Shown here in pieces: positions 1,312-53,522 of a stretch of 64,000 nucleotides of DNA. Location of the stretch: positions 61,196,001-61,260,000 of the forward strand of contig NC_086097.1 of NCBI RefSeq assembly GCF_963921235.1, read 5' to 3'. Within the stretch, counting starts at the first letter, position 1. Every line of letters starts with the position of its first letter. A program made the position numbers and the translations under genes. The notes under the pieces were generated by a model. The model had not been told where the DNA came from and did no database searches. It saw only the letters and a list, made by a program, of their open reading frames with translations. The stretch is from Mobula hypostoma (Eukaryota).

Positions 1312-1387
1312 TTTGAATGCTAAATTTGGGACGGAGTAAATTGATTGGGTTAAAATTCCCGAAAGAAAGAAAAGACAAACAGCAGAA

Positions 1388-3463
1388 ATGGAGGTTGAGG
1401 AATTTATAAAGGCGCCGACCTTGGAGGCATTAGAGGATGCCAGGAAATCGGAATTGATAGCTGTGGCCAAACGGGTGAATCTTGCTAAGGTGAAGTCGAC
1501 AATGAGGAGAGAGGAGATACACAGAGCTATTGTAGAGCACTATGTATCTAAAGGTGTGTTTCCCCAAGGTGAGCTGGGGGAGGTGTCTATTGAAAAACCT
1601 GCTGGAGACGCGGTACAGGTACAGCTTGAAAAACTGAGACTCGAGCACGAGTTCCGGGTACGGCAGTTAGAACACGAAGAGAGACGGTTAGAAAGGCAGG
1701 AGAGAGAGTTAGAAAGGCGGGAGAAAGAGAAAGAGGTAGAAAGGCAAGAGAGAGAAAGACAGTTGGAGAGAGAGGAGAAACAGAGGGAAAGGGAATTTGA
1801 GCTGCAGAAGTTAAAGATAAGGGCCGAGCAGGGGCTCGTGCCGAACCAAGGTGGAGGGTTCCGGGCGACCCAGGAGGTTAGGCTAGTTCCCCCATTTGAT
1901 GATACCGACGTGGATCGGTACTTCCTCCACTTCGAAAAAGTGGCTATAAGTCAGGACTGGCCGAGGGATAAGTGGGTTGTTTTACTTCAGAGTGTACTGA
2001 AAGGGAAGGCCCAAGAAGCTTACTCAGCTTTGTCCGCGGAAGATGCCCAGAGGTATGAGGTGGTGAAAGAGGCCATCCTCAGGATTTATGAGTTGGTCCC
2101 GGAGGCATACCGGCAGAGGTTCCGGAATGCGAGGAAGCAGTGGGACCGCACGTATTTGGAGTTTGCTCGTGAGATGCAAACATATTGTGAGCGTTGGTGC
2201 GCCTCGAAAGGGGTAGAGGGGGATTATGACAGACTGCTGCAGCTGATTCTGATTGAGCAGTTTAAAGGTTGTGTCCCTGAGGGTATGAGACCCTACCTCG
2301 ATGAGAAAGAGGCAGCCACGTTAGCCGCAACTGCTAAGTTAGCGGATGAGTATGCGTTGACGCATAAAATGAAGTTTGCCCCGAGTAAAGGCTACCAGAA
2401 GGGTAGTCAGGACGGAGGGGAGAGTCCGCCGGAAAAGTCAGAAAGTAAGCCGGGGACTAGTGAAAAGGATAGGGTAGACCGGGAGCAGTCTGGTAGGAAG
2501 TCTCCTGGGGTCGTCTGTTATAATTGTGGGAAAGTCGGACACTTTGCGTCCAGGTGCTTTGCCCCAAGGAAGGAGACGGGGAAAGGAAAAGCGGAAATTT
2601 GGAATGGCTGTATCGAGCTGTTAAGCGAACCGCTAGGGAAGGACAGGTCTGAAAAAGTCCAGGAAGGGCGCGAGAGGTTTATCTCGGCCGGACTGGTGTC
2701 AGTGAAGGAGGGGTTAAAACCAGTTCCAGTGCGGATCTGGAGAGACACGGGAGCGTGTCAGTCACTAATATTGAAGAGTGTATTAGAGTTTAGCTCAGAG
2801 ACCCAGACTGGGGAGGAAGAGGTCAAAGGTGTTGGGGCAGGGACAGAGTCAGTCCCTGTGCACCAGATACACTTACAGAGCAACCTGGTCTCTGGACTAG
2901 TCACGATCGGGGTGAGGTCCGAATTACCGATGAAAGACGTGGAAGTCTTGCTCGGTAATGACATCGTCGGAGGAATTGTGTTCCCAGTCGTGAGATTGAC
3001 GGGTCAGCCTGCCAGCATTGAGGCCCGGCCCATGGACTCACAGGTTCATCGTGGGCCCCCGATGGTGAATTTGGCTGAAACATTTCTGCCAACCTTGTAT
3101 GAGACAGGGTGTAGTGAGATAAGAGGTAGTGAGGGAGCTGGGACAGACGTGGCAGTAGCCAGGAAAGAATTTGTGCAGACGCAGGAGCGAGACGAGGGGC
3201 TGATGGTTTTGGCAGAGACCGCTCTCTCTGACACAGCCTTGACAAGCTATTGTGCGGAGGAGGAAGTGCTAAGGAAGAAAGGGAAATCAAGTACAGTACC
3301 CGCAGATGAGGAATGGGGGGTGGTGCAAAAGAGTTATGGGGATGAGGTTTTTAACATGGCCCACGAAGTACCCCCCGGTGGACATTTTGCGGTGCTGGAG
3401 GAAACAGTTGGTGGAATCATGAAAGAGATTTACCGGCTGCCCAGGGAAAAAAAATGTTATTGA
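1388..3463 (+). CDS. gag: Gag (coiled coil, SCAN-like capsid, CCHC knuckle)-aspartic protease with degenerate integrase Zn-finger start, 691 aa
   Basis: ELVPEAYRQRFR...LILIEQF (SCAN-like), CYNCGKVGHFASRC, WRDTGACQSLI...LLGND (protease), AHEVPPGGHF (integrase HH). Confidence 0.9.
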   Translation: MEVEEFIKAPTLEALEDARKSELIAVAKRVNLAKVKSTMRREEIHRAIVEHYVSKGVFPQGELGEVSIEKPAGDAVQVQLEKLRLEHEFRVRQLEHEERRLERQERELERREKEKEVERQERERQLEREEKQREREFELQKLKIRAEQGLVPNQGGGFRATQEVRLVPPFDDTDVDRYFLHFEKVAISQDWPRDKWVVLLQSVLKGKAQEAYSALSAEDAQRYEVVKEAILRIYELVPEAYRQRFRNARKQWDRTYLEFAREMQTYCERWCASKGVEGDYDRLLQLILIEQFKGCVPEGMRPYLDEKEAATLAATAKLADEYALTHKMKFAPSKGYQKGSQDGGESPPEKSESKPGTSEKDRVDREQSGRKSPGVVCYNCGKVGHFASRCFAPRKETGKGKAEIWNGCIELLSEPLGKDRSEKVQEGRERFISAGLVSVKEGLKPVPVRIWRDTGACQSLILKSVLEFSSETQTGEEEVKGVGAGTESVPVHQIHLQSNLVSGLVTIGVRSELPMKDVEVLLGNDIVGGIVFPVVRLTGQPASIEARPMDSQVHRGPPMVNLAETFLPTLYETGCSEIRGSEGAGTDVAVARKEFVQTQERDEGLMVLAETALSDTALTSYCAEEEVLRKKGKSSTVPADEEWGVVQKSYGDEVFNMAHEVPPGGHFAVLEETVGGIMKEIYRLPREKKCY

Positions 3464-3503
3464 TCATGACCGACGCGAACTGAGACGGTCACCGGCTTTT
3501 GAT

Positions 3504-4262
3504 ATGCTAACAAACCTAGTCGGTGTTAGCGTGGAAATCAATGAAGCTAGGGGCCCCCTGATAAGAGAAAAGAACCATTTTGAAAAGATTAGGATGGGAT
3601 CGGTCAGATGGGAGAAGGCTATTGTTTTGGCCAGGTCTACTGATAAGGTCTCTCCCTTAATCCCCGAACAAAGCGAATCTTTAGAAGGAGTAATTAAACG
3701 ACTCGCACCTATGTGTTTGATTGTCCCGAGGAAATGCAAAGAACTGGGACGTTGGGTTATGTCTGTTACAATAGGGCAGCCCAGTAAAGAACACTCATAT
3801 ATATTGAGTAATTCAGTGACTAAAGGGCTGATGACCACAGAGGTGTGTATTGGCAATTTAATACGGCTGTCTGAAGCCAGCTTGATAGTGAACCTTGAAA
3901 AAAATGAATTCGGCCACACGAGGGTCACTTACCTGGAAATTGTGGTGACACAGGGGCAGCTGGCAGCGATGCAAGCTACAGTGCAGGCTATCGCTGACCT
4001 CCCAACCCCGATAGACAAGAGGGCCCTCAGAAGGCTTTTGGAGATGGTGGGGTACTGCAGGAAGTTTTGCAATAACTCTGCGGTCAATACCCGTTCCCCT
4101 CCTACTAAGCCCTTGCGAGAGAAAACTGAGTCGGAATGGGACAACCCTTGTTGTTGTGGTCCGGGACAAAACAAAATGAGAGGGTACATTGGTCGCAATT
4201 CATCAGTATTTTTGGCCACTATGAAGTTTGCTGAGTTGGAGCCTGGTCTAAGGGATTATTAA
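3504..4262 (+). CDS. Degenerate pol remnant (RT C-terminal/thumb region, no YxDD); probably the continuation of the gag ORF
   Basis: LSEASLIVNLEKNEFGHTRVTYL...AIADLPTPIDKRALRRLLEMVGYCRKFC resembles the Gypsy RT C-terminus. The frame is open upstream to the A8 run at 3447-3454. Confidence 0.7.
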   Translation: MLTNLVGVSVEINEARGPLIREKNHFEKIRMGSVRWEKAIVLARSTDKVSPLIPEQSESLEGVIKRLAPMCLIVPRKCKELGRWVMSVTIGQPSKEHSYILSNSVTKGLMTTEVCIGNLIRLSEASLIVNLEKNEFGHTRVTYLEIVVTQGQLAAMQATVQAIADLPTPIDKRALRRLLEMVGYCRKFCNNSAVNTRSPPTKPLREKTESEWDNPCCCGPGQNKMRGYIGRNSSVFLATMKFAELEPGLRDY

Positions 4263-14762: not shown

Positions 14763-17231
14763 ATTAAGATTTCTTCCGCCGTCTCCGTCTCCGAGCCTAC
14801 TTCTTCGGCAAGGACTCTTCCACCCCCACCGATGACCCTTTCTCCGGTCTTCAACCCTCCTCTTCTTCATGGACACCCCGCTCTGGTCTTCTGCCTGCTC
14901 TGGATCTCTTTATCGCTAATTGCCGACGGGACATCAACCGTCTCAACTTCACCGCACCTTGTCCCCATTCCAACCTCACTCCTTCGGAACGCTCTGCTCT
15001 CCACTCCCTCCGTACTAATCCTAACCTTATTATTAAACCCGCCTATAAGGGGGGTGTTGTTGTAGTCTGGCGTACTGACCTCTACCTTGCCGAGGCACAG
15101 CGACAACTCGCGGATACCTCCTCTTATTTACCCCTCAATCGTGACCCCACTAAGGAGCACCAGGCCATTGTCTCCCACACCATCACCGACTTTATCCGCT
15201 CAGGGGATCTCCCATCCACTGCTACCAACCTTATAGTTCCCACACCTCGCACTTCCCGTTTCTACCTCCTACCCAAGATCCACAAACCTGCCTGTCCTGG
15301 CCGACCTATTGTCTCAGCTTGCTCCTGCCCCACCGAACTCGTTTCTGCATACCTCGACACGGTTTTATCACCCCTTGTTCAATCCCTTCCGACCTATGTT
15401 CGTGATACTTCTCATGCTCTTAAACTTTTCGATGATTTTAAGTTCCCTGGCCCCCACCGCTTTATTTTCACCATGGATGTCCAGTCCTTATATACTTCCA
15501 TCCCCCATCAGGATGGTCTCAAAGCTCTACGCTTCTTTTTGGATTCCAGACCTAATCAGTTCCCCTCTACCACCACTCTGCTCCGTCTAGCGGAATTAGT
15601 CCTTACTCTTAATAATTTCTCTTTGGCTCCTCCCACTTCCTCCAAACTAAAGGTGTAGATATGGGCACCCGTATGGGTCCTAGCTATGCCTGCCTTTTTG
15701 TTGGCTTTGTGAAACAATCTATGTTCCGTGCCTATTCTGGTATCTGTCCCCCACTTTTCCTTCGCTACATCGACGACTGCATTGGCGCTGCTTCCTGCAC
15801 GCATGCAGAACTCGTTGACTTTATTAACTTTGTCTCCAACTTTCACCCTGCCCTCAAGTTTACCTGGTCCATGTCCGACACCTCCCTCCCCTTTCTAGAT
15901 CTTTCTGTCTCTGTCTCTGGAGACAGCTTATCCACTGATGTCTACTATAAGCCTACTGACTCTCACAGCTATCTGGACTATTCCTCTTCTCACCCTGTCT
16001 CTTGCAAAAACGCCATCCCCTTCTCGCAATTCCTCCGTCTCTGCCGCATCTGCTCTCAGGATGAGGCTTTTCACTCTAGGACGAGGGAGATGTCTTCCTT
16101 TTTTAAAGAAAGGGGCTTCCCTTCCTCCACTATCAACTCTGCTCTTAAAAGCATCTCCCCCATTTCACATACATCTGCTCTCACTCCATCCTCCCGCTAC
16201 CCCACTAGGAATAGGGTTCCCCTGGTCCTCACCTACCACCCCACCAGCCTCCGGGTCCAACATATTATTCTCCGTAACTTCCGCCACCTCCAACGGGATC
16301 CCACCACTAAGCACATCTTTCCCTCCCCCCCCCCTGCATTCCGCAGGGATCGCTCCCTACACAACTCCCTTGTCCATTCGTTCCCCCCCATCCCTCCCCA
16401 CTGATCTCCCTCCTGGCACTTATCCGTGTAAGCGGAACAAATGCTACACATGCCCTTACACTTCCTCCCTTACCGCCATTCAGGGCCCCAAACAGTCCTT
16501 CCACGTGAGGCAACACTTCACCTGTTAGTCGACTGGGGTGATATACTGCGTCCGGTGCTCCCGATGTGGCCTTTGATATATTGGCGAGACCCGACGCAGA
16601 CTGGGAGACCGCTTTGCTGAACACCTACGCTCTGTCCGTCAGAGAAAGCAGGATCTCCCAGTGGCCACACATTTTAATTCCACATCACATTCCCATTCCC
16701 ATTCTGACATGTCTATCTATGGCCTCCTCTACTGTAAAGATGAAGCCGCACTCAGGTTGGAGGAACAACACCTTATATTCCGTCTGGGTAGCCTCCAACC
16801 TGATGGCATGAACATCGACTTCTCTAACTTCTGCTAAGGCCCCACTTCCCCCTCGTACCCCATCTGTTACTTATTTTTATGCACACATTCTTTCTCTCAC
16901 TCTCCTTTTTCTCCCTCTGTCCCTCTGAATATACCTCTTGCCCATCCTCTGGGTCCCCTCCCCCCTTGTCTTTCTTCCCGGACCTCCTGTCCCATGATCC
17001 TCTCGTATCTCCTTTTGCCTATCACCTGTCCAGCTCTCGGCTCTATCCCTCTCCCTCCTGTCTTCTCCTATCATTTTGGATCTCCCTCTCCCCCTCTAAC
17101 TTTCAAATCCCTTACTCACTCTTCCTTCAGTTAGTCCTGACGAAGGGTCTCGGCCTGAAACGTTGACTGCACCTCTTCCTACAGATGCTGCCTGGCCCGC
17201 TGCGTTCACCAGCAACTTTGATGTGTGTTGC
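14763..17231 (+). mobile_element. Penelope-like element, 5'-truncated (RT + GIY-YIG endonuclease, frameshifted)
   Basis: FTMDVQSLYTSIP, MGTRMGPSYACLF, FLRYIDD, GVIYCVRCSRCGL*YIGET. 14-bp TSD TAGAAGATTAGGAG (14749-14762, 17232-17245). Confidence 0.92.
17132..17169 (+). ncRNA. Minimal hammerhead ribozyme motif in the PLE terminal repeat
   Basis: TAGTC-CTGACGA-AGGGTCTCGGCCT-GAAA-CGTT^GACTG: CUGANGA and GAAA cores, palindromic ACGT stem III, GUU triplet. Confidence 0.75.
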
Positions 17232-35306: not shown

Positions 35307-38134
35307 AGTCAAGTCAAGTCAAGTTGTTTTTTATTGTCATTTCGACCATAAACTGCTGGTACAGTATACAGTAAAAACGAAACAACGTTCCTCCAGGACC
35401 ATGGTGCTACATGAAACAACACAAAACTACACTAGACTACAGACCTGCACAGGACTACATAAAGTGCACAAAACAGTGCAGGGCAGTACAATAAATAATA
35501 AACAAGACAATAGGCACAGTAGAGGACAAATTACAATATAATAATAAATGATGTTGATGTCAGTCTAGTCTCTGGGTATTAAGGAGTCTGATGGTTTGGG
35601 GGAAGAAACTGTTGTACAGTCTGGTCGTGAAAGCCCGACTGCTTTGGTACCGTTTGCCAGATGGCAGAAGGGAGAAGAGTTTGTATGAGGGGTGCATGGG
35701 GTCCTTCACAATGCTGTTGGCTTTATGGGTGCAGCATGTAGTGTAAATGTCTGTAATGGCGGGAAGAGAGACCCAGGTGATTTTCTCAGCTGACCTCACT
35801 TTCTGCTGCAGGGTCTTGCGATCTGAGACGGTGCAATTCCCGAACCAGGCAGTGATGCAGCTGCTCAGGATGCTCTCGATACAACCTCTGTAGAAAGTGG
35901 TGAGGATGCTGGGTGGGAAATGGACCTTTCTCAGCCTTCGCAGAAAGTAGAGACGCTGTTGGGCTTTCTTGGCTATGGAGCTGGTGTTGAGGGACCAGGT
36001 GAGATTTTCCGCCAGGTGAAAACCAAGAAATTTGGTGCTCTTAACGATCTCAACAGAGCAGCCGTCAATGTTCAGCGGAGAGTGGTCGCTCCGTGCTCTC
36101 CTGAAGTCAACAACATCTCTTTTGTTCACATTCAGAGACAGGTTGTTGGCTCTGCACCAGTTCGTGAGCCGCTGCACCTCCTCTCTGTATGCTGACTCAT
36201 CGTTCTTGCTGATGAGACCCACCACAGTCGTGTCATTGGTGAACTTGATGTTGTGGTTCGAGCTGTGTGTTGCAGCACAGTCGTGGGTCAGCAGAGTGAA
36301 CAGCAGTGGACTGAGCCCTGGGGGGCCCCGTGCTCAGTGTGATGGTGTTGGAGATGCTGCTTCCAATCCAGACTGACTGTGGTCTCCCAGTCAGGAAGTC
36401 TAGGATCCAGTTGCAGAGGGAGGTGTTCAGGCCCAGTAGGCTCAGCTTTCCAATCAGTTTCTGAGGAATGATTGTGTTGAATGCTGGACTGAAGTCTCTG
36501 AACAGCATTTGAACGTACTTGTCTTTTTTGTCCAGGTGGGTTAGGGCCAGGTGGAGCGTGCTGGCGATGGCGTCGTCTGTTGAACGGTTAGGACGATACG
36601 CAAACTGCAGGGGGCCCAGTGAAGGAGGCAGCAGGGTCTTGATGTGCCTCATGACGAGCCTCTCGAAACGCTTCCTGATGATGGATGTGAGTGCGACGGG
36701 ACAGTAGTCGTTGAGGCAGGACACTGAAGACTTCTTCAGCACGGGGACGATGGTCGCGGCCTTAAAGCATGTTGGAACGATGGCATTGCTCAGGGAGATA
36801 TTGAAGATGTCAGTGAGAACATCTGCCAGCTGGTCTGCATATCCTCTGAGCACTCTGCCAGGAATATTGTCTGGTCCCGCAGCCTTCCGTGGGTTGACCC
36901 TGCATACAGTTTTCCTCACATCAGCCACGGTAAGACACAGCACCTGGTCATTGGGAGGAGGAGTGGTCTTCCTTGCCACCACATCATTTTCCACCTCGAA
37001 ACAAGCATAAAAGTTGTTCAACACATCTGGGAGGGAGGCATCACCAGCACAGGAAGGTGGTGTTGTCTTGTAGTTGGTGATGTCCTGAATGCACTTCCAC
37101 ATGTGCCGCGTGTCGCCGCTGTCCTGGAAGTGGCTGTGGATGCACTGGGCGTCTGCACGCTTTGCCTTTCTGATGGCCCAGGACAGTTTGGCCCTCGCTG
37201 TTGTTAGGGCTGCCATGTCCCCTGCTCTGAAGGCGGAGTCACGGGTTCTCAGCAGTTCACGCACCTCCGCGGTCATCCATGGCTTCTGATTAGCGCATAT
37301 AGTGATGGTCTTGGACACAGTGACATCATCAATGCACTTGCTGATGTAGCTAGTCACTGATGCCGTGTACTCCTCTAAGTTGGTGGAGTTGCCATCGGTT
37401 ACAGCCTCCCTGAATATGTGCCAGTCAGTGTGCTCAAAGCAGTCTTGAAGAGCAGAGATGGCTCCTGCTGGCCAGGTTTTCACCTGCTTCTGAACCGGTC
37501 TGGAGCGTCTGACAAGTGGTCTGTATGCAGGGATAAGCATAACAGAGATGTGGTCTGAGTAACTGAGGTGGGGGCAGAGTTCCGCACGGTACACATCAGG
37601 GATGTTTGTACAAACAAGTTCCAACGTGTTCGCCCCTCTCGTTGCAAAGTCTACATGCTGATAGAATTTGGGGAGAACTGACTCATGGTTCGTGTGGTTA
37701 AAATCTCCAGCGACAATAAACAGTCCCTCAGTATGTGCATTCTGCAGTTTGCTAATAGCCCCATACATTTCACAGAGCACCTCCTCAGCATTAGCACTGG
37801 GGGGAATGTACACACCGACTATAAGGACAGTGGTGAATTCCCATGGTAAATAAAATGGTCTGCATCTAACAGTCATAAACTCCACTAGTGATGAGCAGTA
37901 ACTAGAGACCAGCACACAGTTCTTGCACCATTCCATGTTAATGTATATACACAAGCCACCACTGCGAGCCTTACTGCATAGAGCTGCATCTCTGTCAGCC
38001 CGAAACAAAGCGAGCCCGTCTAACTGAAAGACGGCGTCTGGAACTCTGTCGCTAAGCCACATTTCCATGAAAACGAAAGCACAGCAGACTCTGAACTCCT
38101 GCCAAGTAGTCAACTGGAGTCGTATGTGGTCCAA
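35307..38134 (-). mobile_element. Rex1/Babar-like LINE, 5'-truncated (endonuclease + RT + C-terminal domain)
   Basis: ORFs 36233-38134 ([27 protein letters not shown]) and 35560-36225 (QRLYFLRRL). FADD is altered to FTND; (GACTT)n tail; possible TSD TTTACA. Confidence 0.9.
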
Positions 38135-38851
38135 TTTACAGCAATAATGGTAACTGGATAATGTCTACAGTGTGTCTCAGCAAGTGCTTTTTTTCCGTTA
38201 GTGTTAAAAGGATATCTGAGGAAATATCACAAGTGTGTGAAGTTATCCAATTAGGAGAAAAAGTATATAAATATTGAGAGTCATTCAGGTTTATCAGGAA
38301 TATGGTAAAGAACATCAAGAAGCCATGAAAGAAACAAGTTGTAAGTCTGTTTCTCCAGCTTCGGTTTTTGCAATAGACAACTTGCTTGTCTGTAACTTGA
38401 TAGAATGTCATTTTAGTTTATAGGAATTGTACTTGTATCTTGGAAATCCTTAATCCTTTAAGCTTAATGTTTATGGTTTAGAATTGGCTTGAAATTTGGA
38501 AATGTTTTATAATGTTCCAAGATTCAAGATAATAATTCAATGGATCAAGATAAGGTAGGAATCCCCCGTGAATTTTAAACGAGTTTTAAGAATATTGTTT
38601 GGATTTAAATGTATATCAATAAAAATAGTGAACTGTGTTTCAAACTACTTTGATAACTCAAAATATTTTCTCCTTGGTAGGGAGAGGGGACCCACCACTC
38701 AGATAGTGCGCATTGGCAGCTAAACTCACCATGGAGAATAGACCCATCGGCAGTTCCACTTCTTGCTGCTGTGGCACACTTAATTTGTCATCCTTGTGAA
38801 AATGTACACATTAGTGCAAAATGCAGGGTGACTCAGCTATCCCTGCTGACC

Positions 38852-41701: not shown

Positions 41702-44700
41702 TCAGAACCCCGCCCCAGCCTTCTCTCCATACCCCTTGACCCCTGTAGCCACAAGGGCCATATCTAACTCCCTCTTAAACATAGCCAATGAACTGGCCTC
41801 AACAGTTTGCTGTGGCAGAGAATTCCACAGATTCACCACTCTCTGTGTGAAGAAGTTTTTCCTAATCTCGGTCCTAAAAGGCTTCCCCTCTATCCTCAAA
41901 CTGTGACCCCTCGTTCTGGACTTCCCCAACATCGGGAACAATCTTCCTGCATCTAGCCTGTCCAATCCCTTTAGGATCTTATACGTTTCAATCAGATCCC
42001 CCCTCAATCTTCTAAATTCCAACGAGTACAAGCCCAGTTCATCCAGTCTTTCTTCATATGAAAGTCCTGCCATCCCAGGAATCAATCTGGTGAACCTTCT
42101 TTGTACTCCCTCTATGGCAAAGATGTCTTTCCTCAGATTAGGGGACCAAAACTGCACACAATACTCCAGGTGTGGTCTCACCAAGGCCTTGTACAACTGC
42201 AGTAGTAGCTCCCTGCTCCTGTACTCGAATCCTCTCGCTATAAATGCCAGCATACCATTCGCCTTTTTCACCGCCTGCTGTACCTGCATGCCCACTTTCA
42301 ATGACTGGTGTATAATGACACCCAGGTCTCGTTGCACCTCCCCTTTTCCTAATCGGCCACCATTCAGATAATAATCTGTTTTCCTATTTTTGCCACCAAA
42401 GTGGATAACTTCACATTTATCCACATTAAATTGCATCTGCCATGAGTTTGCCCACTCACCCAACCTATCCAAGTCACCCTGCATCCTCTTAGCATCCTCC
42501 TCACTGCTAACACTGCCGCCCAGCTTCGTGTCATCCACTAACTTGGAGATGTTGCATTTAATTCCCTCATCCAAGTCATTAATATATATTGTAAACAACT
42601 GGGGTCCCAGCACTGAGCCTTGCGGTACCCCACTAGTCACCGCCTGCCATTCTGAAAAGGTCCCGTTTATTCCCACTCTTTGCTTCCTGTCTGCTAACCA
42701 ATTCTCCACCCACACCAATACCTTACCCCCAATACCGTGTGCTTTAAGTTTGCACACTAATCTCCTGTGTGGGACCTTGTCAAAAGCCTTTTGAAAATCC
42801 AAATATACCACATCCACTGGTTCTCCCCTATCCACTCTACCAGTTACATCCTCAAAAAATTCTATGAGATTTGTCAGACATGATTTTCCTTTCACAAATC
42901 CATGCTGACTTTGTCCGATCATATCTCCGCTTTCCAAATGTGCTGTTATCACATCCTTGATAACTGACTCCAGCAGTTTCCCCACCACCGACGTTAGGCT
43001 AACCGGTCTATAATTCCCCGGTTTCTCTCTCCCTCCTTTTTTAAAAATTGGGGTTACATTAGCCACCCTCCAATCCTCAGGAACTAGTCCAGAATCTAAC
43101 GAGTTTTGAAAAATTATCACTAATGCATCCACTATTTCTTGGGCTACTTCCTTAAGCACTCTAGGATGCAGACCATCTGGCCCTGGGGATTTATCTGCCT
43201 TCAAACCCTTCAATTTACCTAACACCACTTCCCTACAAACATGTATTTCACTCAGTTCCTCCATCTCACTAGACCCTCTGTCCCTTACTATTTCTGGAAG
43301 ATTATTTATGTCCTCCTTAGTGAAGACAGAACCAAAGTAATTATTCAATTGGTCTGCCATGTCCTTGCTTCCCATAATCAATTCACCTGTTTCTGTCTGC
43401 AGGGGACCTACATTTGTCTTTACCAGTCTTTTCCTTTTTACATATCTATAAAAGCTTTTACAGTCCGTTTTTATGTTCTCTGCCAGTTTTCTCTCATAAT
43501 CTTTTTTCCCCTTCCTAATTAAGCCCTTTGTCCTCCTCTGCTGAACTCTGAATTTCTCCCAGTCCTCAGGTGAGCCACTTTCTCTGGCTAATTTGTATGC
43601 TACTTCTTTGGAATTGATACTATCCCTAATTTCTCTTGTCAGCCACGGGTGCACTACCTTCCTTGATTTATTCTTTTGCCAAACTGGGATGAACAATTGT
43701 TGTAGTTCATCCATGCAAGCTTTAAGTGCTTGCCATTGCATATCCACCGTCAATCCTTTAAGTGTCATTTGCCAGTCTATCTTAGCTAATTCACGTCTCA
43801 TACCTTCAAAGTTACCCCTCTTTAAGTTCAGAACCTTTGTTTCTGAATTAATTATGTCACTCTCCATATTAATGAAGAATTCCACCATATTATGGTCACT
43901 CTTACCCAAGAGGCCTCTCACGACAAGATCGCTAATTAACCCTTCCTCATTGCTCAAAACCCAGTCCAGAATAGCCTGCTCTCTAGTTGGTTCCTCGACA
44001 TGTTGGTTCAAAAAACCATCCCGCATACATTCCAAGAAATCCTCTTCCTCAGCACCTTTACCAATTTGGTTCACCCAGTCTACATGTAGATTGAAGTCAC
44101 CCATTATAACTGCTGTTCCTTTATTGCACACATTTCTAATTTCCTGTTTAATACCATCTCCGACCTCACTACTACTGTTAGGTGGCCTGTACACAACTCC
44201 CACCAGTGTCTTCTGCCCCTTAGTGTTACGCAGCTCTACCCATATCGATTCCACATCTTCCCGGCTTATGTCCTTCCTTTCTATTGCGTTAATCTCTTCT
44301 TTAACCAGCAACGCCACCCCACCTCCCCTTCCTTCATGTCTATCCCTCCTGAATATTGAATATCCCTGAACGTTGAGTTCCCATCCCTGGTCACCCTGGA
44401 GCCATGTCTCTGTGATCCCAACTATATCATAATCATTAATAACAATCTGCACTTTCAATTCATCCACCTTATTACGAATGCTCCTTGCATTGACACATAA
44501 AGCCTTCAGGCGCTCTTTTACAACTCTCTTAGCCCTTGTACAATTATGTTGAAAAGTGGCCCTTTTTAATGCTTGCCCTGGATTTGTCGGCCTGCCACTT
44601 TTACTTTTCTCCTTTGTACTTTTTGCTTCTACGCTCACTTTACACCCCTCTGTCTCTCTGCACTGGTTCCCATCCCTCTGTTGTGAACTAACCTCCTCAC

Positions 44701-44734
44701 GCCTAGCCTCTTTAATTTGATTCCCACCCCCCAA
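41702..44734 (-). CDS. CR1 ORF2: AP endonuclease + reverse transcriptase, 1010 aa
   Basis: NARSIRNK, ITETWL, GDFN, SDH, QHGF, YLDFQKAFD, SGVPQGSVLGP, SKLVDDTK; no stops. Confidence 0.95.
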   Translation of the reverse strand: MGGGNQIKEARREEVSSQQRDGNQCRETEGCKVSVEAKSTKEKSKSGRPTNPGQALKRATFQHNCTRAKRVVKERLKALCVNARSIRNKVDELKVQIVINDYDIVGITETWLQGDQGWELNVQGYSIFRRDRHEGRGGGVALLVKEEINAIERKDISREDVESIWVELRNTKGQKTLVGVVYRPPNSSSEVGDGIKQEIRNVCNKGTAVIMGDFNLHVDWVNQIGKGAEEEDFLECMRDGFLNQHVEEPTREQAILDWVLSNEEGLISDLVVRGLLGKSDHNMVEFFINMESDIINSETKVLNLKRGNFEGMRRELAKIDWQMTLKGLTVDMQWQALKACMDELQQLFIPVWQKNKSRKVVHPWLTREIRDSINSKEVAYKLARESGSPEDWEKFRVQQRRTKGLIRKGKKDYERKLAENIKTDCKSFYRYVKRKRLVKTNVGPLQTETGELIMGSKDMADQLNNYFGSVFTKEDINNLPEIVRDRGSSEMEELSEIHVCREVVLGKLKGLKADKSPGPDGLHPRVLKEVAQEIVDALVIIFQNSLDSGLVPEDWRVANVTPIFKKGGREKPGNYRPVSLTSVVGKLLESVIKDVITAHLESGDMIGQSQHGFVKGKSCLTNLIEFFEDVTGRVDRGEPVDVVYLDFQKAFDKVPHRRLVCKLKAHGIGGKVLVWVENWLADRKQRVGINGTFSEWQAVTSGVPQGSVLGPQLFTIYINDLDEGIKCNISKLVDDTKLGGSVSSEEDAKRMQGDLDRLGEWANSWQMQFNVDKCEVIHFGGKNRKTDYYLNGGRLGKGEVQRDLGVIIHQSLKVGMQVQQAVKKANGMLAFIARGFEYRSRELLLQLYKALVRPHLEYCVQFWSPNLRKDIFAIEGVQRRFTRLIPGMAGLSYEERLDELGLYSLEFRRLRGDLIETYKILKGLDRLDAGRLFPMLGKSRTRGHSLRIEGKPFRTEIRKNFFTQRVVNLWNSLPQQTVEASSLAMFKRELDMALVATGVKGYGEKAGAGF

Positions 44735-44739
44735 CCATT

Positions 44740-45060
44740 CTAGATTAAAGTCACCTCAGTAGCCCCCGCCAATCTCCCCGCCAGGATATTGGTCCCCCTA
44801 GGATTCAAGTGTAACCCGTCCTTTTTGTACAGGTCACGCCTGCGCCTGAGGTCCCAATGATCCAAAAACTTGAATCCCTGCCCCCTGCTCCAATCCCTCA
44901 GCCACGCATTTATCCTCCACCTCATCGCATTCCTACTCTCACTGTCGCGTGGCACAGGCAGTAATCCCGAGATTACTACCTTTGCGGTCCTTTTTCTCAA
45001 CTCCCTTCCTAGCTCCCTATATTCTCCTTTCAGGACCTCATCCCTTTTCCTACCTATGTC
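44740..45060 (-). CDS. CR1 ORF1 C-terminal fragment (SGNH esterase-like)
   Basis: KVVISGLLPVP...FLDHWD...DGLHLNPRGTNIL. Confidence 0.8.
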   Translation of the reverse strand, partial: DIGRKRDEVLKGEYRELGRELRKRTAKVVISGLLPVPRDSESRNAMRWRINAWLRDWSRGQGFKFLDHWDLRRRRDLYKKDGLHLNPRGTNILAGRLAGATEVTLI

Positions 45061-50320: not shown

Positions 50321-51792
50321 CAGGAGGTATGAAATGGGCCATTCTAATCAAAATAAGCCATTGTAGTTCTTCTAAAGAGCCTGCTCATGGGTTCTGCCAC
50401 TAGGATACTGCTTTATCTGGGTTGCCAACAATATACATGCATTTTATGTTATCTCTGTCTCAGGCAGTGCTCCCTCTAGGCTATGACACTTGCTCTGCTC
50501 TGTAACGCTTGTCTGGCACACACAGAACAGTAGAGCGCAGAACAGACTCTTCAGTCAAGATAATGTTTGGTAACCTTTTAACCTGCTCTAAGATTAACCT
50601 AGCCCTCCATTTCCTTTCAGCCATGTGCTTCTTTAAGAATCTATGAAATCTCCCTAATGTTTCCATCTGTACCTGCAGTGTGTTCCATGCAAAAAGTAAA
50701 AATTGGATTCTGATATCCTACCTATACTTTCATCCAATCACCTTAAAATTATGCCCTTTCATATTAGCCACTTCTATCCTGGGCAAAAGGTGCTGGCCAT
50801 CCATTCTACCTATGCTCCTTACCGTCTTGTATACCACTACGAAGTTGCCTTTCATCCTCCTTCACTCCAAAGAGAAAAGTGCTACCTTGCTCAAACTTTC
50901 CTCATAAAACATGATCATTCATCCTAGTAAATCTCCTCTGCACCCTCTCTGAAGCCTCCACATCTTTCCTGTACTGAGATGATCAGAACTACTCCTAGTA
51001 TGGTCCAACATTACCTTGCAGCTCTTCTCCGACTAAAGAAGGCCAACATACTATATGCCTTTTAACCACCCTATTGATTTGTGCGTGAACTTTGGGGGAA
51101 TCTATCAACACGGACTCCAAGATCCTTCTACTCCTTCACACTGCTAGGAATTCTGCCACTAACTTTGTACTCTACCTTCAAGTTCAATCTTCTATAGTAG
51201 AGTCCAGATTGAACTCCATCCACCAACTTTTAACTCAGCTCTGCATCCTATCACTGTCCCATGGTAACCTATGACAACCTTCTACAACTCAACTGACCTT
51301 TGTCATCTACAGACGTATTAAAGTACTTTTCCATTTCCCCATACAAGTAATTTATAAATATCATAAAGAACAGGGGTCCTAGAGCAGATCTCTGCAGGAC
51401 ACTAGTCACCAGCCTACAAGCAGAATATGGTTCATCTACTACCATTCTCTTTGAGCAAGCCAATGCTGAATCCATGCATTTTCCCTTAGCCCCATGCCTT
51501 CTGTCATTCTGTATGAGCCTACCATGGGGAACCTTAACAAACACTTCACTAAAATCCATCTTCACCATATCCACTGCTGTATATTCATCAATTTGCTTTG
51601 TCAGTATCCAGAGAATATTGAAGAATTCAATCAGGCTTATGAGGCACAACCTACCTTCGCAAAGTTGACTATCCCTATTCTGATTATGCTTCCCTAAATG
51701 TTCATAAATCCTTTCTGTATGAATTATCCCCAATAGTTTTCCCACCACTGGTGTAATGCTCACTGGTCTATAATTCCCACTGGTCTATAATT

Positions 51793-52404
51793 GCCCGGGG
51801 TGTATGGGGTGTCAGGGAGGGGTAGCACCTCTGGTGGGGGAACATGTCACGTCCTTTTCAGGGTGGTTAGTCCACCTTTGGTCCCCACCTGGCACTCAGC
51901 TCTCACCTGTGGCTCCCCGTAGCTGTTTGCATGCGACAGTGGCCACACCCCGGGCAACAGCTTCGACAAGCCGGCTAAACCAGGTGAGGGTAGCCGACGG
52001 GTCTCAAACCCTCGGTGAGATAGGGAGTTGTCTATCCCAGCATGTGAAGACAGACTCCGGCGGATTGAGCGGACGAGACCAATGGAAGGTCCAACGATCA
52101 AGAAGGCGGTCTCTGCAAGCGTCGTGTAACGTGTAGAGCAGGACAAGACACAGGACGTCTTCTGTGTCTTGTGCTGCTCTACACGTTCCACGATGCTTGC
52201 AGAGACAGCCTTCTTGACTCTGACCAGCCATCTTGACTCTGTCTTGCCACTGGATCCAGATGGGAATTGGGAAGAGAGAGTGAGGCTGACGCTGTGCAAC
52301 TCTCCCTCACTTAAATCCAAATCACGCGCTAGTCTCGACACCATCAATAATGGTGTCGAGGTCCTCATCGACATACGATGGACGAACAACAACAAAACAA
52401 CAAC
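51793..52404 (+). mobile_element. Non-autonomous RTE-like retroposon (SINE-like), ~610 bp
   Basis: GC/CpG-rich insert interrupting the CR1 PGNY|RPV codons; (AAC)n tail; TSD ATAATT (51787-51792, 52405-52410); no recognisable coding domain. The RTE assignment is inference. Confidence 0.7.
51806..51988 (+). ncRNA. Candidate HDV-like self-cleaving ribozyme
   Basis: P1 GGGGTGT/ACACCCC, P2 CTCACCTG/CAGGTGAG, P3 GGC/GCC, L3 starting TCC, P1.1 GG, P4 GCTT/AAGC, J4/2 GGCTAA, all in canonical order. Confidence 0.65.
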
Positions 52405-53522
52405 ATAATTCCCAGGATTATCCCTATTACCTTTCTGGAACAAAGGAATAACACTTGCCACCTTCCAATCTTCTGGTACTACTGCGTCTGGTGAGGGATC
52501 ACTGCCAAAGACACAGCAATCTCTTCTTTTGTTTCCAATAATAACCTGGAGTATATCTTTTCCTCCCCAGGGACACATCCACCCTTCTGTTATTCACAAG
52601 TTCCAGCACACTTCCTTTCTTAACATCAAAAGGGTCCAACATTGTAGCCTGTTTCACAATGTCCTCACATTAGTCAAGGTCCCTCTCACTGGTGAACACT
52701 GAAGCAAGTATTCCTTAAGGACCACCCTAACTCATTTGTCCTCTGGCACGTTTCCCCCTTTTATCACTGATCAGTCGTACCCTCACTCCATTCCACTCAT
52801 ATATGAATGAAATGCCTTGGGTATTTCCTTATCCTGCTCATCAACGTCTTCTCATGACTCCTTCTAGTTTGCATAAGTTCCTTCTTAAGCTCTCACTGGC
52901 TATTTTATAACCCTCGGGAGCCCTGTTTTCCTAAATTTTAAATATCTTTCTTCCTCTTCACTAGATATTCTACTTCACTTGTCAACCATGTTTTCTTCAC
53001 CCTACCATCCTTTCCCTGCCTCAAAGGAACAACCTATCCAGAATGCCATGCAAGTGCTCCCTAAATACCTCAGCATTTCTATTGCACATTTCTGTGATTA
53101 CATCTCTTCCCAATTTATCCTCCCAAATTCTTGCCTTAATGCATCATAATTAGTCATCCCCAAATTAAATACTTTCCCATACCATCTGCTCCTATTCCTG
53201 AGCTGTGTTTTGTCTCCAAAATGCTCACTCACTGAGAGATCTGTCACCTTCTCAGGCTCATTGCTTATTTCTGGACTCAGTATGACCTCTCCTCTAGTCA
53301 ACATTTCCACATAATGTGTCAGGAATCCTTCCTGTTCACACACAACATATTCTGTCCCATTTAAACCTTTTGCATTGAGGCAGCCCCAATCAATATTATT
53401 TAAATTGAAGTCAACCCTGCTATTTTTGCACTTTTACATAATCTGCCTTCCAATGTGTTTTTCAGTATTTCTATTTCTAAGGGGAGTGGGGGTCAGGGTT
53501 CTACAGAATACCCCCGACAGAA

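Follow-up and report, generated by a model that had tools for sequence, protein, structure and literature searches.

A candidate HDV-like ribozyme variant with a hairpin in L3 on a probable bipartite RTE derivative of Mobula hypostoma

The element, its copies, and its parent LINE

The window analyzed here is a 64,000-nucleotide stretch of the Mobula hypostoma genome, and all positions are counted from its first letter. It harbors a complete non-coding retroelement with the following parts.

51797-52404, plus strand: whole two-ended, internally deleted, non-autonomous element of RTE type, non-coding, ~600 bp (from sequence, copy alignments, and the parent LINE)
51787-51796, plus strand: target-site duplication, 5' copy, with one G more than the 3' copy (from sequence)
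52405-52413, plus strand: target-site duplication, 3' copy (from sequence)
51992-52346, plus strand: remainder of the LINE 5' UTR, resembling RTE-11_PSi, RTE-2_CPB, and the bipartite MAR4_MD (from the parent match and alignment by eye)
52348-52404, plus strand: LINE 3' end with (AAC)n tail (from sequence and alignment to the parent)
52150-52217, no strand assigned: inverted duplication of about 52098-52167, ~68 bases (absent from the other aligned copies displayed)

The element (51797-52404) carries an (AAC)n tail, lies between the copies of a 9-to-10-base duplication, and is inserted antisense within a decayed reverse-transcriptase frame that we take to be CR1-like. Immediately ahead of the insertion site lies an 18-base tandem duplication of host sequence (51761-51796). 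Long open retroelement frames occur elsewhere in the window (1340-4262, 14768-16404, 35560-38164, and 41702-44755); these are presumably one region of LTR-type gag/pol character and three frames for reverse transcriptase, among them one of 1017 aa.

Searching the genome (3.48 Gb) with 51790-52100 as a query returned 3085 candidates for the element, of which 40 were scored, the window copy included. The other 39 are 97 to 98% identical to the query, and alignments of genome copies open about 9 bases ahead of 51806, where the original prediction had the element begin. In a set of 29 copies selected by their 3' end, mean identity is 95.5% and target-site duplications of 6 to 12 nt flank 25. The hallmarks of bipartite non-autonomous elements are present, i.e., target-site duplication, microsatellite tail, 5' truncations, and many copies. 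The element is also found in contigs of presumed RNA runs, which carry no RNA-end information, and a near-identical sequence occurs in runs of six organism labels. In the window copy, the inverted duplication (52098-52217) displaces part of the family sequence and forms a long hairpin with a weak microRNA score. Rfam microRNA matches in the element were rejected as spurious, their source being this duplication.

A SINE-like nature had been proposed for the family. No tRNA was found within the element, no B-box match lies inside it, and no Rfam RNA-gene head of the tRNA, 5S, or 7SL type gave a hit; its head derives from a LINE, so this part of the proposal was abandoned. The parent LINE was identified through the protein of a metagenome relative (L130), and 20 full-length loci were fetched, nine of which are the parent family. 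A route through DUF6451 led to 40 loci of other LINE families that share no DNA with the element. Seven parent loci match element positions 3-522 (the first ~520 bases) at 86 to 95% identity, and six of these (L279, L286, L287, and L289-L291) also match positions 519-567 (the last ~48 to 50 bases) at 80 to 89%. Because both ends match the parent, the element can be read as a LINE 5' UTR joined to a LINE 3' end; on sequence grounds, it is an internally deleted RTE-type LINE that has lost its ORF. Parent copy L279 has an open 1109-aa frame with matches to Exo_endo_phos (6.7e-8) and RVT_1 (6e-30). This ORF layout, a single ORF with endonuclease and reverse transcriptase, and the likeness of the UTR to named RTE families suggest an RTE-type parent.

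Bipartite non-autonomous LINEs are known for the RTE, Ingi, Vingi, and R2 groups, and several RTE families carry predicted ribozymes (available sections of PMC5786205); bipartite RTE derivatives usually retain the 5' end, according to excerpts of PMC5786205 and PMC6765202. MAR4_MD, RTESINE1/2, WALLSI3, and RTE-N2_Lch have the same build as our element, a 5' UTR plus a short 3' end without an ORF, but the excerpted text of PMC5786205 does not describe a tested ribozyme or a helix between 5' and 3' sides of the joint for any of them. By eye, and as far as the sequences appear in the excerpt, the 3' half of the element aligns with RTE-11_PSi 370-529 (~11 differences per 150 nt) and with MAR4_MD 346-552. 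R2 SIDEs and the trypanosomatid NARTc/SIDER2 are likewise non-autonomous and have an HDV-like ribozyme at the 5' end, where our element has its candidate; they belong to other LINE clades, and the portions of PMC3774820, PMC4035085, and PMC3383444 at hand do not mention an L3 hairpin.

The predicted fold and the choice of 5' end

The 5' part of the element is predicted to fold as an HDV-like ribozyme, whose segments are given below.

51797-51803, plus strand: P1 5' strand, beginning with G51797, the predicted G1 and site of cleavage (from 5' ends and a compensatory change in L130)
51807-51897, plus strand: structured J1/2 domain closed by P1.2 (51807-51816/51888-51897; from folding)
51899-51910, plus strand: P2 5' strand, 12 pairs (6/12 pairs change on both sides)
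51911-51913, plus strand: P3 5' strand (kept in two families found without the search pattern)
51914-51921, plus strand: canonical head of L3, with U20 (51914), C21-C22 of P1.1 (51915-51916), G25 (51919), and a conserved A (51921)
51922-51940, plus strand: hairpin inserted in L3, 6-bp stem and 7-nt loop with a self-complementary hexamer (from covariation)
51942-51953, plus strand: P3 3' strand (51942-51944), P1 3' strand (51945-51951), and GG of P1.1 (51952-51953)
51954-51973, plus strand: J1.1/4 (G40, C41, A42, and A43 as in genomic HDV) and P4 (51958-51963/51968-51973; from P4 covariation)
51974-51978, plus strand: J4/2 with the putative catalytic C51975, A51977, and A51978 (C in 56/56 copies)
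51979-51991, plus strand: P2 3' strand with the conserved bulged C51980 (bulged C in 12/12 relatives among the matches listed)

The predicted order of P1, P1.1, P2, P3, and P4 is that of the canonical nested double pseudoknot; P2 and P4 covary, and P1 is compensated. The core pattern occurs once in the 64,000-nt window and in none of 100 shuffles. Every segment named in the original prediction was located where it had been placed, and its main proposal, an HDV-like fold with a hairpin in L3 at the 5' end of a non-coding retroposon, appears to hold, with the retroposon now probably tied to RTE-type LINEs. L3 has the predicted 28 nt and can form the predicted stem, which pairs 51922-51927 with 51935-51940 around a 7-nt loop. 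The proposed P2 (51902-51909/51981-51988) exists and is part of a longer helix, in which 51899-51909 pairs with 51981-51991 and U51910 with A51979, leaving C51980 bulged. Among copies, the catalytic C (56/56), U20 (55/55), and G25 (53/55) are kept. The window copy has decayed at the paired site T51940 (C in 48/55 copies) and at A51959 (G in 44/55 copies), which breaks one P4 pair; its core is intact.

The L3 hairpin starts after G25 and two further bases, at the 3' end of L3, where it presumably faces solvent. P3 could alternatively use 51922-51924, so that the insertion would fall between P3 and P1; we rejected this arrangement because these bases vary, fail to pair in L109 and L210, and belong to the covarying hairpin stem. 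Published descriptors for HDV-like ribozymes allow 7 to 8 nt for L3 and no more than 51 nt for J1/2 (PMC4870747 supplement, in the part available), whereas L3 here measures 26 to 29 nt. No Rfam HDV-type model hit the element at E up to 10, a second search gave no hit at E up to 5, and no other Rfam ribozyme family matched in either. With L3 and J1/2 also beyond the descriptor limits, standard searches miss the element, as had been anticipated. The first 7 nt of L3 (51914-51920) match the published L3 descriptor TYYHCGY; as L3 itself is too long, we file the candidate as a variant rather than a canonical member.

Two known ribozymes resemble the candidate. With genomic HDV (bioRxiv 10.1101/2022.09.22.508989), the candidate shares U20/G25, the two P1.1 G-C pairs, G40-C41-A42-A43, G74-C75, and A77-A78, and it differs in its 95-nt J1/2, the L3 hairpin, and a G1-C pair in place of G1-U; the G1-U pair occurs in the relatives L139 and L196. 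With drz-Agam-2-1 (PMC4908430), it shares the helix order, a structured J1/2 closed by P1.2, short linkers (here 3 nt from P1 to P1.2 and 1 nt from P1.2 to P2), and a 12-bp P2, to which the element, whose ribozyme is predicted only, adds a 19-nt L3 hairpin and the conserved bulged C in P2. According to the available part of that paper, the combination of P1.2, short linkers, and a long P2 accelerates cleavage of drz-Agam-2-1 by orders of magnitude. A closing stem of P1.2 type, differing in sequence, is predicted in 11/11 sequences folded.

Two GGGGTGT runs, 51797-51803 and 51806-51812, can each pair 7/7 with 51945-51951. The original prediction had used the second for P1, with the element starting and the RNA cut at G51806. 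For a census of 5' ends, copies were selected by their 3' end because bias was to be avoided (29 after removal of the query itself from 30 loci). Starts fall at element positions 1-3 in 18 copies, at position 7 in three, and further in for eight; none of the 29 begins at positions 9-12, near 51806, and the pileup of genomic 5' ends expected at GGGGTGTC was not found. Likewise, 7/9 parent-LINE loci begin within two bases of G1. Since copies begin at the first run, at G51797, P1 is assigned to 51797-51803/51945-51951, and both the start of the element and the predicted cut move 9 bases upstream. The former P1 5' strand instead pairs with 51888-51897 and closes the 95-nt J1/2 domain, which folds at -41.7 kcal/mol with P1 on the first run and at -30.2 kcal/mol with P1 on the second, a loss of about 11.5 kcal/mol. 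In relative L130, both P1 strands have changed at pair 2 with pairing kept, and the second run cannot form P1 in L130, L109, or L187. P1 forms 7/7 pairs at the first run in 6/8 listed relatives with upstream sequence, L133 and L202 being ambiguous.

A cut before G51797 is therefore the likely one, as judged from these 5' ends and compensations, and we consider the register on 51806-51812 highly improbable despite its full pairing with 51945-51951. In an older second family, where P1 position 7 is a C-A mismatch, ~14/25 copies begin at the first P1 run and ~11/25 at the matching second run (judged by eye). Duplicated P1 strands can yield two cut sites in R2, as stated in the accessible text of PMC3774820, and such a precedent also speaks for the 51806 register. 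The older second family (L296-L320) is a LINE with the same ribozyme form; its 5' end holds a tandem repeat of 9 bases, and its copies start at the first, second, or a third unit.

Conservation among relatives and in further families

Metagenomes were scanned with a pattern that fixed P3, the start of L3, GGGCAA, and GGCTAA. At least 120 loci were found, and the relatives are therefore a partial sample. Among the 120 matches listed, 12 are relatives by blastn, representing about eight lineages, and four of these 12 have an endonuclease frame downstream. The relatives stand apart from the 108 other hits listed in G25, which the pattern left free (12/12 versus 25/108), in the A after G25 (12/12 versus 25/108), in an L3 stem of at least 4 bp (12/12 versus 2/108), in a P2 with at least 7 of 10 pairs (11/12 versus 8/108), and in the bulged C of P2 (12/12 versus 31/108). 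G25, the L3 stem, and P2 occur jointly in 11/12 relatives and 0/108 other hits, again among the matches listed; a P4 with at least 4 uninterrupted pairs separates the two groups less well (6/12 versus 3/108). The L3 length of 26 to 29 nt holds across the relatives among these matches. Because the pattern fixed P3, P1.1, and J4/2, their invariance in the metagenome set is circular. The same kind of pattern scan gave no hit in prokaryote genomes, and a pattern for further P2 variants gave none in the Mobula hypostoma genome. Thirty phage hits proved to be one unrelated stretch without P2 and were discarded.

Covariation was scored on 13 sequences, 10 of the 12 listed relatives and three from the Mobula hypostoma genome. 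In this alignment, 92.6% of cells pair, and 13/26 pairs change on both sides (P2, 6/12; L3 stem, 3/4 scored; P4, 4/5 scored). None of 500 shuffles equaled this number and slid structures reached 0 to 2, although the rows are related and the shuffle count is therefore no probability. In alignment A2, row L300 is 14 bases short and was kept in the model. The covariation of P2, P4, and the L3 hairpin among relatives, together with the compensated P1, shows these helices to be conserved.

In L109, L205, and L210, the same ribozyme form precedes an endonuclease visibly unlike that of L130, L133, and L150; the form may thus span deep RTE branches. The search pattern played no part in finding two further families of the Mobula hypostoma genome, an older LINE and a second one older still. 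In their majority sequences both keep U20, C21-C22, G25, P3, P1.1, the hairpin, and the catalytic C, and both also have P2 and P4. Rather than being peculiar to one family, the hairpin was inherited from the LINE and is common to distant RTE lineages. The oldest family (L333-L362) has 373 exact motif matches in the genome, model hits at the motif in 28/30 loci, a compensated P4, and a different J1.1/4; no endonuclease frame lies within 1.5 kb in any of the 30 loci.

The oldest family also bears on whether the HDV likeness is incidental, the RNA being instead a different, non-pseudoknotted element with three hairpins inside P2. Minimum-energy folding of the element strand is no better than that of shuffles (z of -0.45 and -1.08), and nested folding predicts a competing pairing that sequesters the catalytic C. 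The nested RNAalifold consensus pairs 51911-51913 with J4/2 and 51942-51944 with 51953-51955, and the lack of Rfam HDV-type hits points the same way. RNAalifold, however, is unable to predict pseudoknots; the changed J1.1/4 of the oldest family breaks the alternative helix, whereas P3 and P1.1 stay, and the covariation of P1 would be left unexplained. There is, in our judgment, very little chance that such a nested structure is the correct one.

More weight is due to a ribozyme relic that no longer cuts. An internal promoter would then set the 5' end, and the fold would be retained for shielding the RNA end, attracting the LINE protein, or initiating translation. The L3 hairpin violates the published 7-to-8-nt rule, and P1 mismatches are tolerated: the variant A51802 is present in 14/47 copies, and such copies still begin at G1. 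The 5' end of L1Tc acts as both promoter and ribozyme (available text of PMC3383444). An abundant sister RTE family (L221-L245, L276-L278, L280-L282, and L292-L295), with open frames of 1000 to 1100 aa, shares the downstream 5' UTR at about 75% and has no hit to the ribozyme model; RTE mobility therefore does not require a ribozyme, and in this family it was possibly exchanged for a captured promoter. The 5' region of the sister family is GC- and CpG-rich, with tandem repeats and varied 5' extents. Against a relic, families with a divergent P4, J1/2, and J1.1/4 still keep the catalytic C, G25, U20, and P1.1; the compensation in P1 falls precisely on the terminal bases; and the 5' ends of the older second family fall at either P1 run, as expected from a choice of cleavage site. 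We thus regard loss of cutting as unlikely. Another single-ORF LINE, L081 (G000:C36:131598000-131604500, minus strand), has an open frame of 1018 aa and ends in (AAG)n; its 5' UTR is short, contains small hairpins, and gives no match to the ribozyme model.

Taken together, comparison of sequences indicates that the element is probably a bipartite RTE derivative bearing a conserved, most likely active HDV-like ribozyme variant. HDV-like ribozymes occur at the 5' ends of RTE, R2, R4, R1, LOA, and Ingi/L1Tc retrotransposons, with G1 as the 5' end of the element (PMC5786205 and PMC6765202, in the sections available); the candidate described here agrees with them in this position, probably in the RTE clade, and in its proposed role.

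The joint helix, a possible mechanism, and implications

One further feature spans the point at which the LINE 5' UTR and 3' end were joined.

52334-52360, plus strand: 11-bp helix spanning the joint, with its 5' arm at 52334-52344 (LINE 5' UTR) and its 3' arm at 52350-52360 (LINE 3' end)

Full-length LINEs were searched for the longest stretch exactly complementary to their last 50 bases, six loci without an anchor being skipped. This stretch lies 26 to 27 bases past a conserved UTR word in 3/5 scored parent copies, at the same offset in 3/5 copies of the older family (counting one tie), and in 1/7 copies of the sister family, the others having an internal mismatch. The arms thus recur in three LINE families at one offset and with three different sequences. 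In a free-energy scan, the 5' UTR site ranked first as pairing partner of the 3' end in none of the 12 LINE copies listed, one of them with a wrongly chosen 3' window; the site stands out solely when exact complements are compared. A conserved long-range helix between the 5' UTR and the 3' end likely exists and would account for the position of the deletion.

These features would fit the following course of events. The element RNA would be made within host transcripts, fold as a double pseudoknot, and cut itself before G51797. P1.2, the short linkers, and the 12-bp P2 may hold P1 and P2 close to each other, as they do in drz-Agam-2-1, and P1.2 may hide the second G run, leaving the first for P1. 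The L3 hairpin would be tolerated since, behind G25 at the 3' end of L3, it would point away from the active site. The LINE protein would bind the 3' tail and, by target-primed reverse transcription, copy the RNA as far as the end left by the cut. The short element itself may have been born when reverse transcription jumped across the helix between the 5' UTR and the 3' end of the LINE.

A bolder view of the hairpin would make it a grafted module whose loops kiss like a retroviral dimer-initiation loop and which, with the 5' UTR-3' end helix, would yield a closed, dimer-forming RTE template. A self-complementary hexamer in the hairpin loop is found in 4/11 sequences, as three different words, and is absent from seven. 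A common short CAUG-like core could yield such hexamers, and the kissing-loop idea is therefore speculative; we hold it to be doubtful.

The 5' processing of retrotransposon RNA by HDV-like ribozymes, the presence of ribozymes on RTEs, and two-ended RTE derivatives are already known. In the literature searched, neither the L3 hairpin nor an end-to-end helix of RTEs was found, and an earlier description of the ribozyme form is possible. The helix between the 5' UTR and the 3' end could explain, in a way open to experiment, why RTEs in particular give rise to bipartite elements, a point that the available portion of PMC5786205 leaves unanswered, and a closed dimer-forming template, if true, would explain the repeated emergence of two-ended parasites at the same joint in the RTE clade. 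If cutting is real, the catalytic loop L3 of HDV-type ribozymes, fixed at 7 to 8 nt in descriptors, can accommodate a whole hairpin, which would then provide an attachment site for sensors or tags. The ribozymes would also form a subclass that extends over several RTE lineages, with copies numbering in the thousands in one large animal genome, and that searches with Rfam and the published descriptors would have missed.
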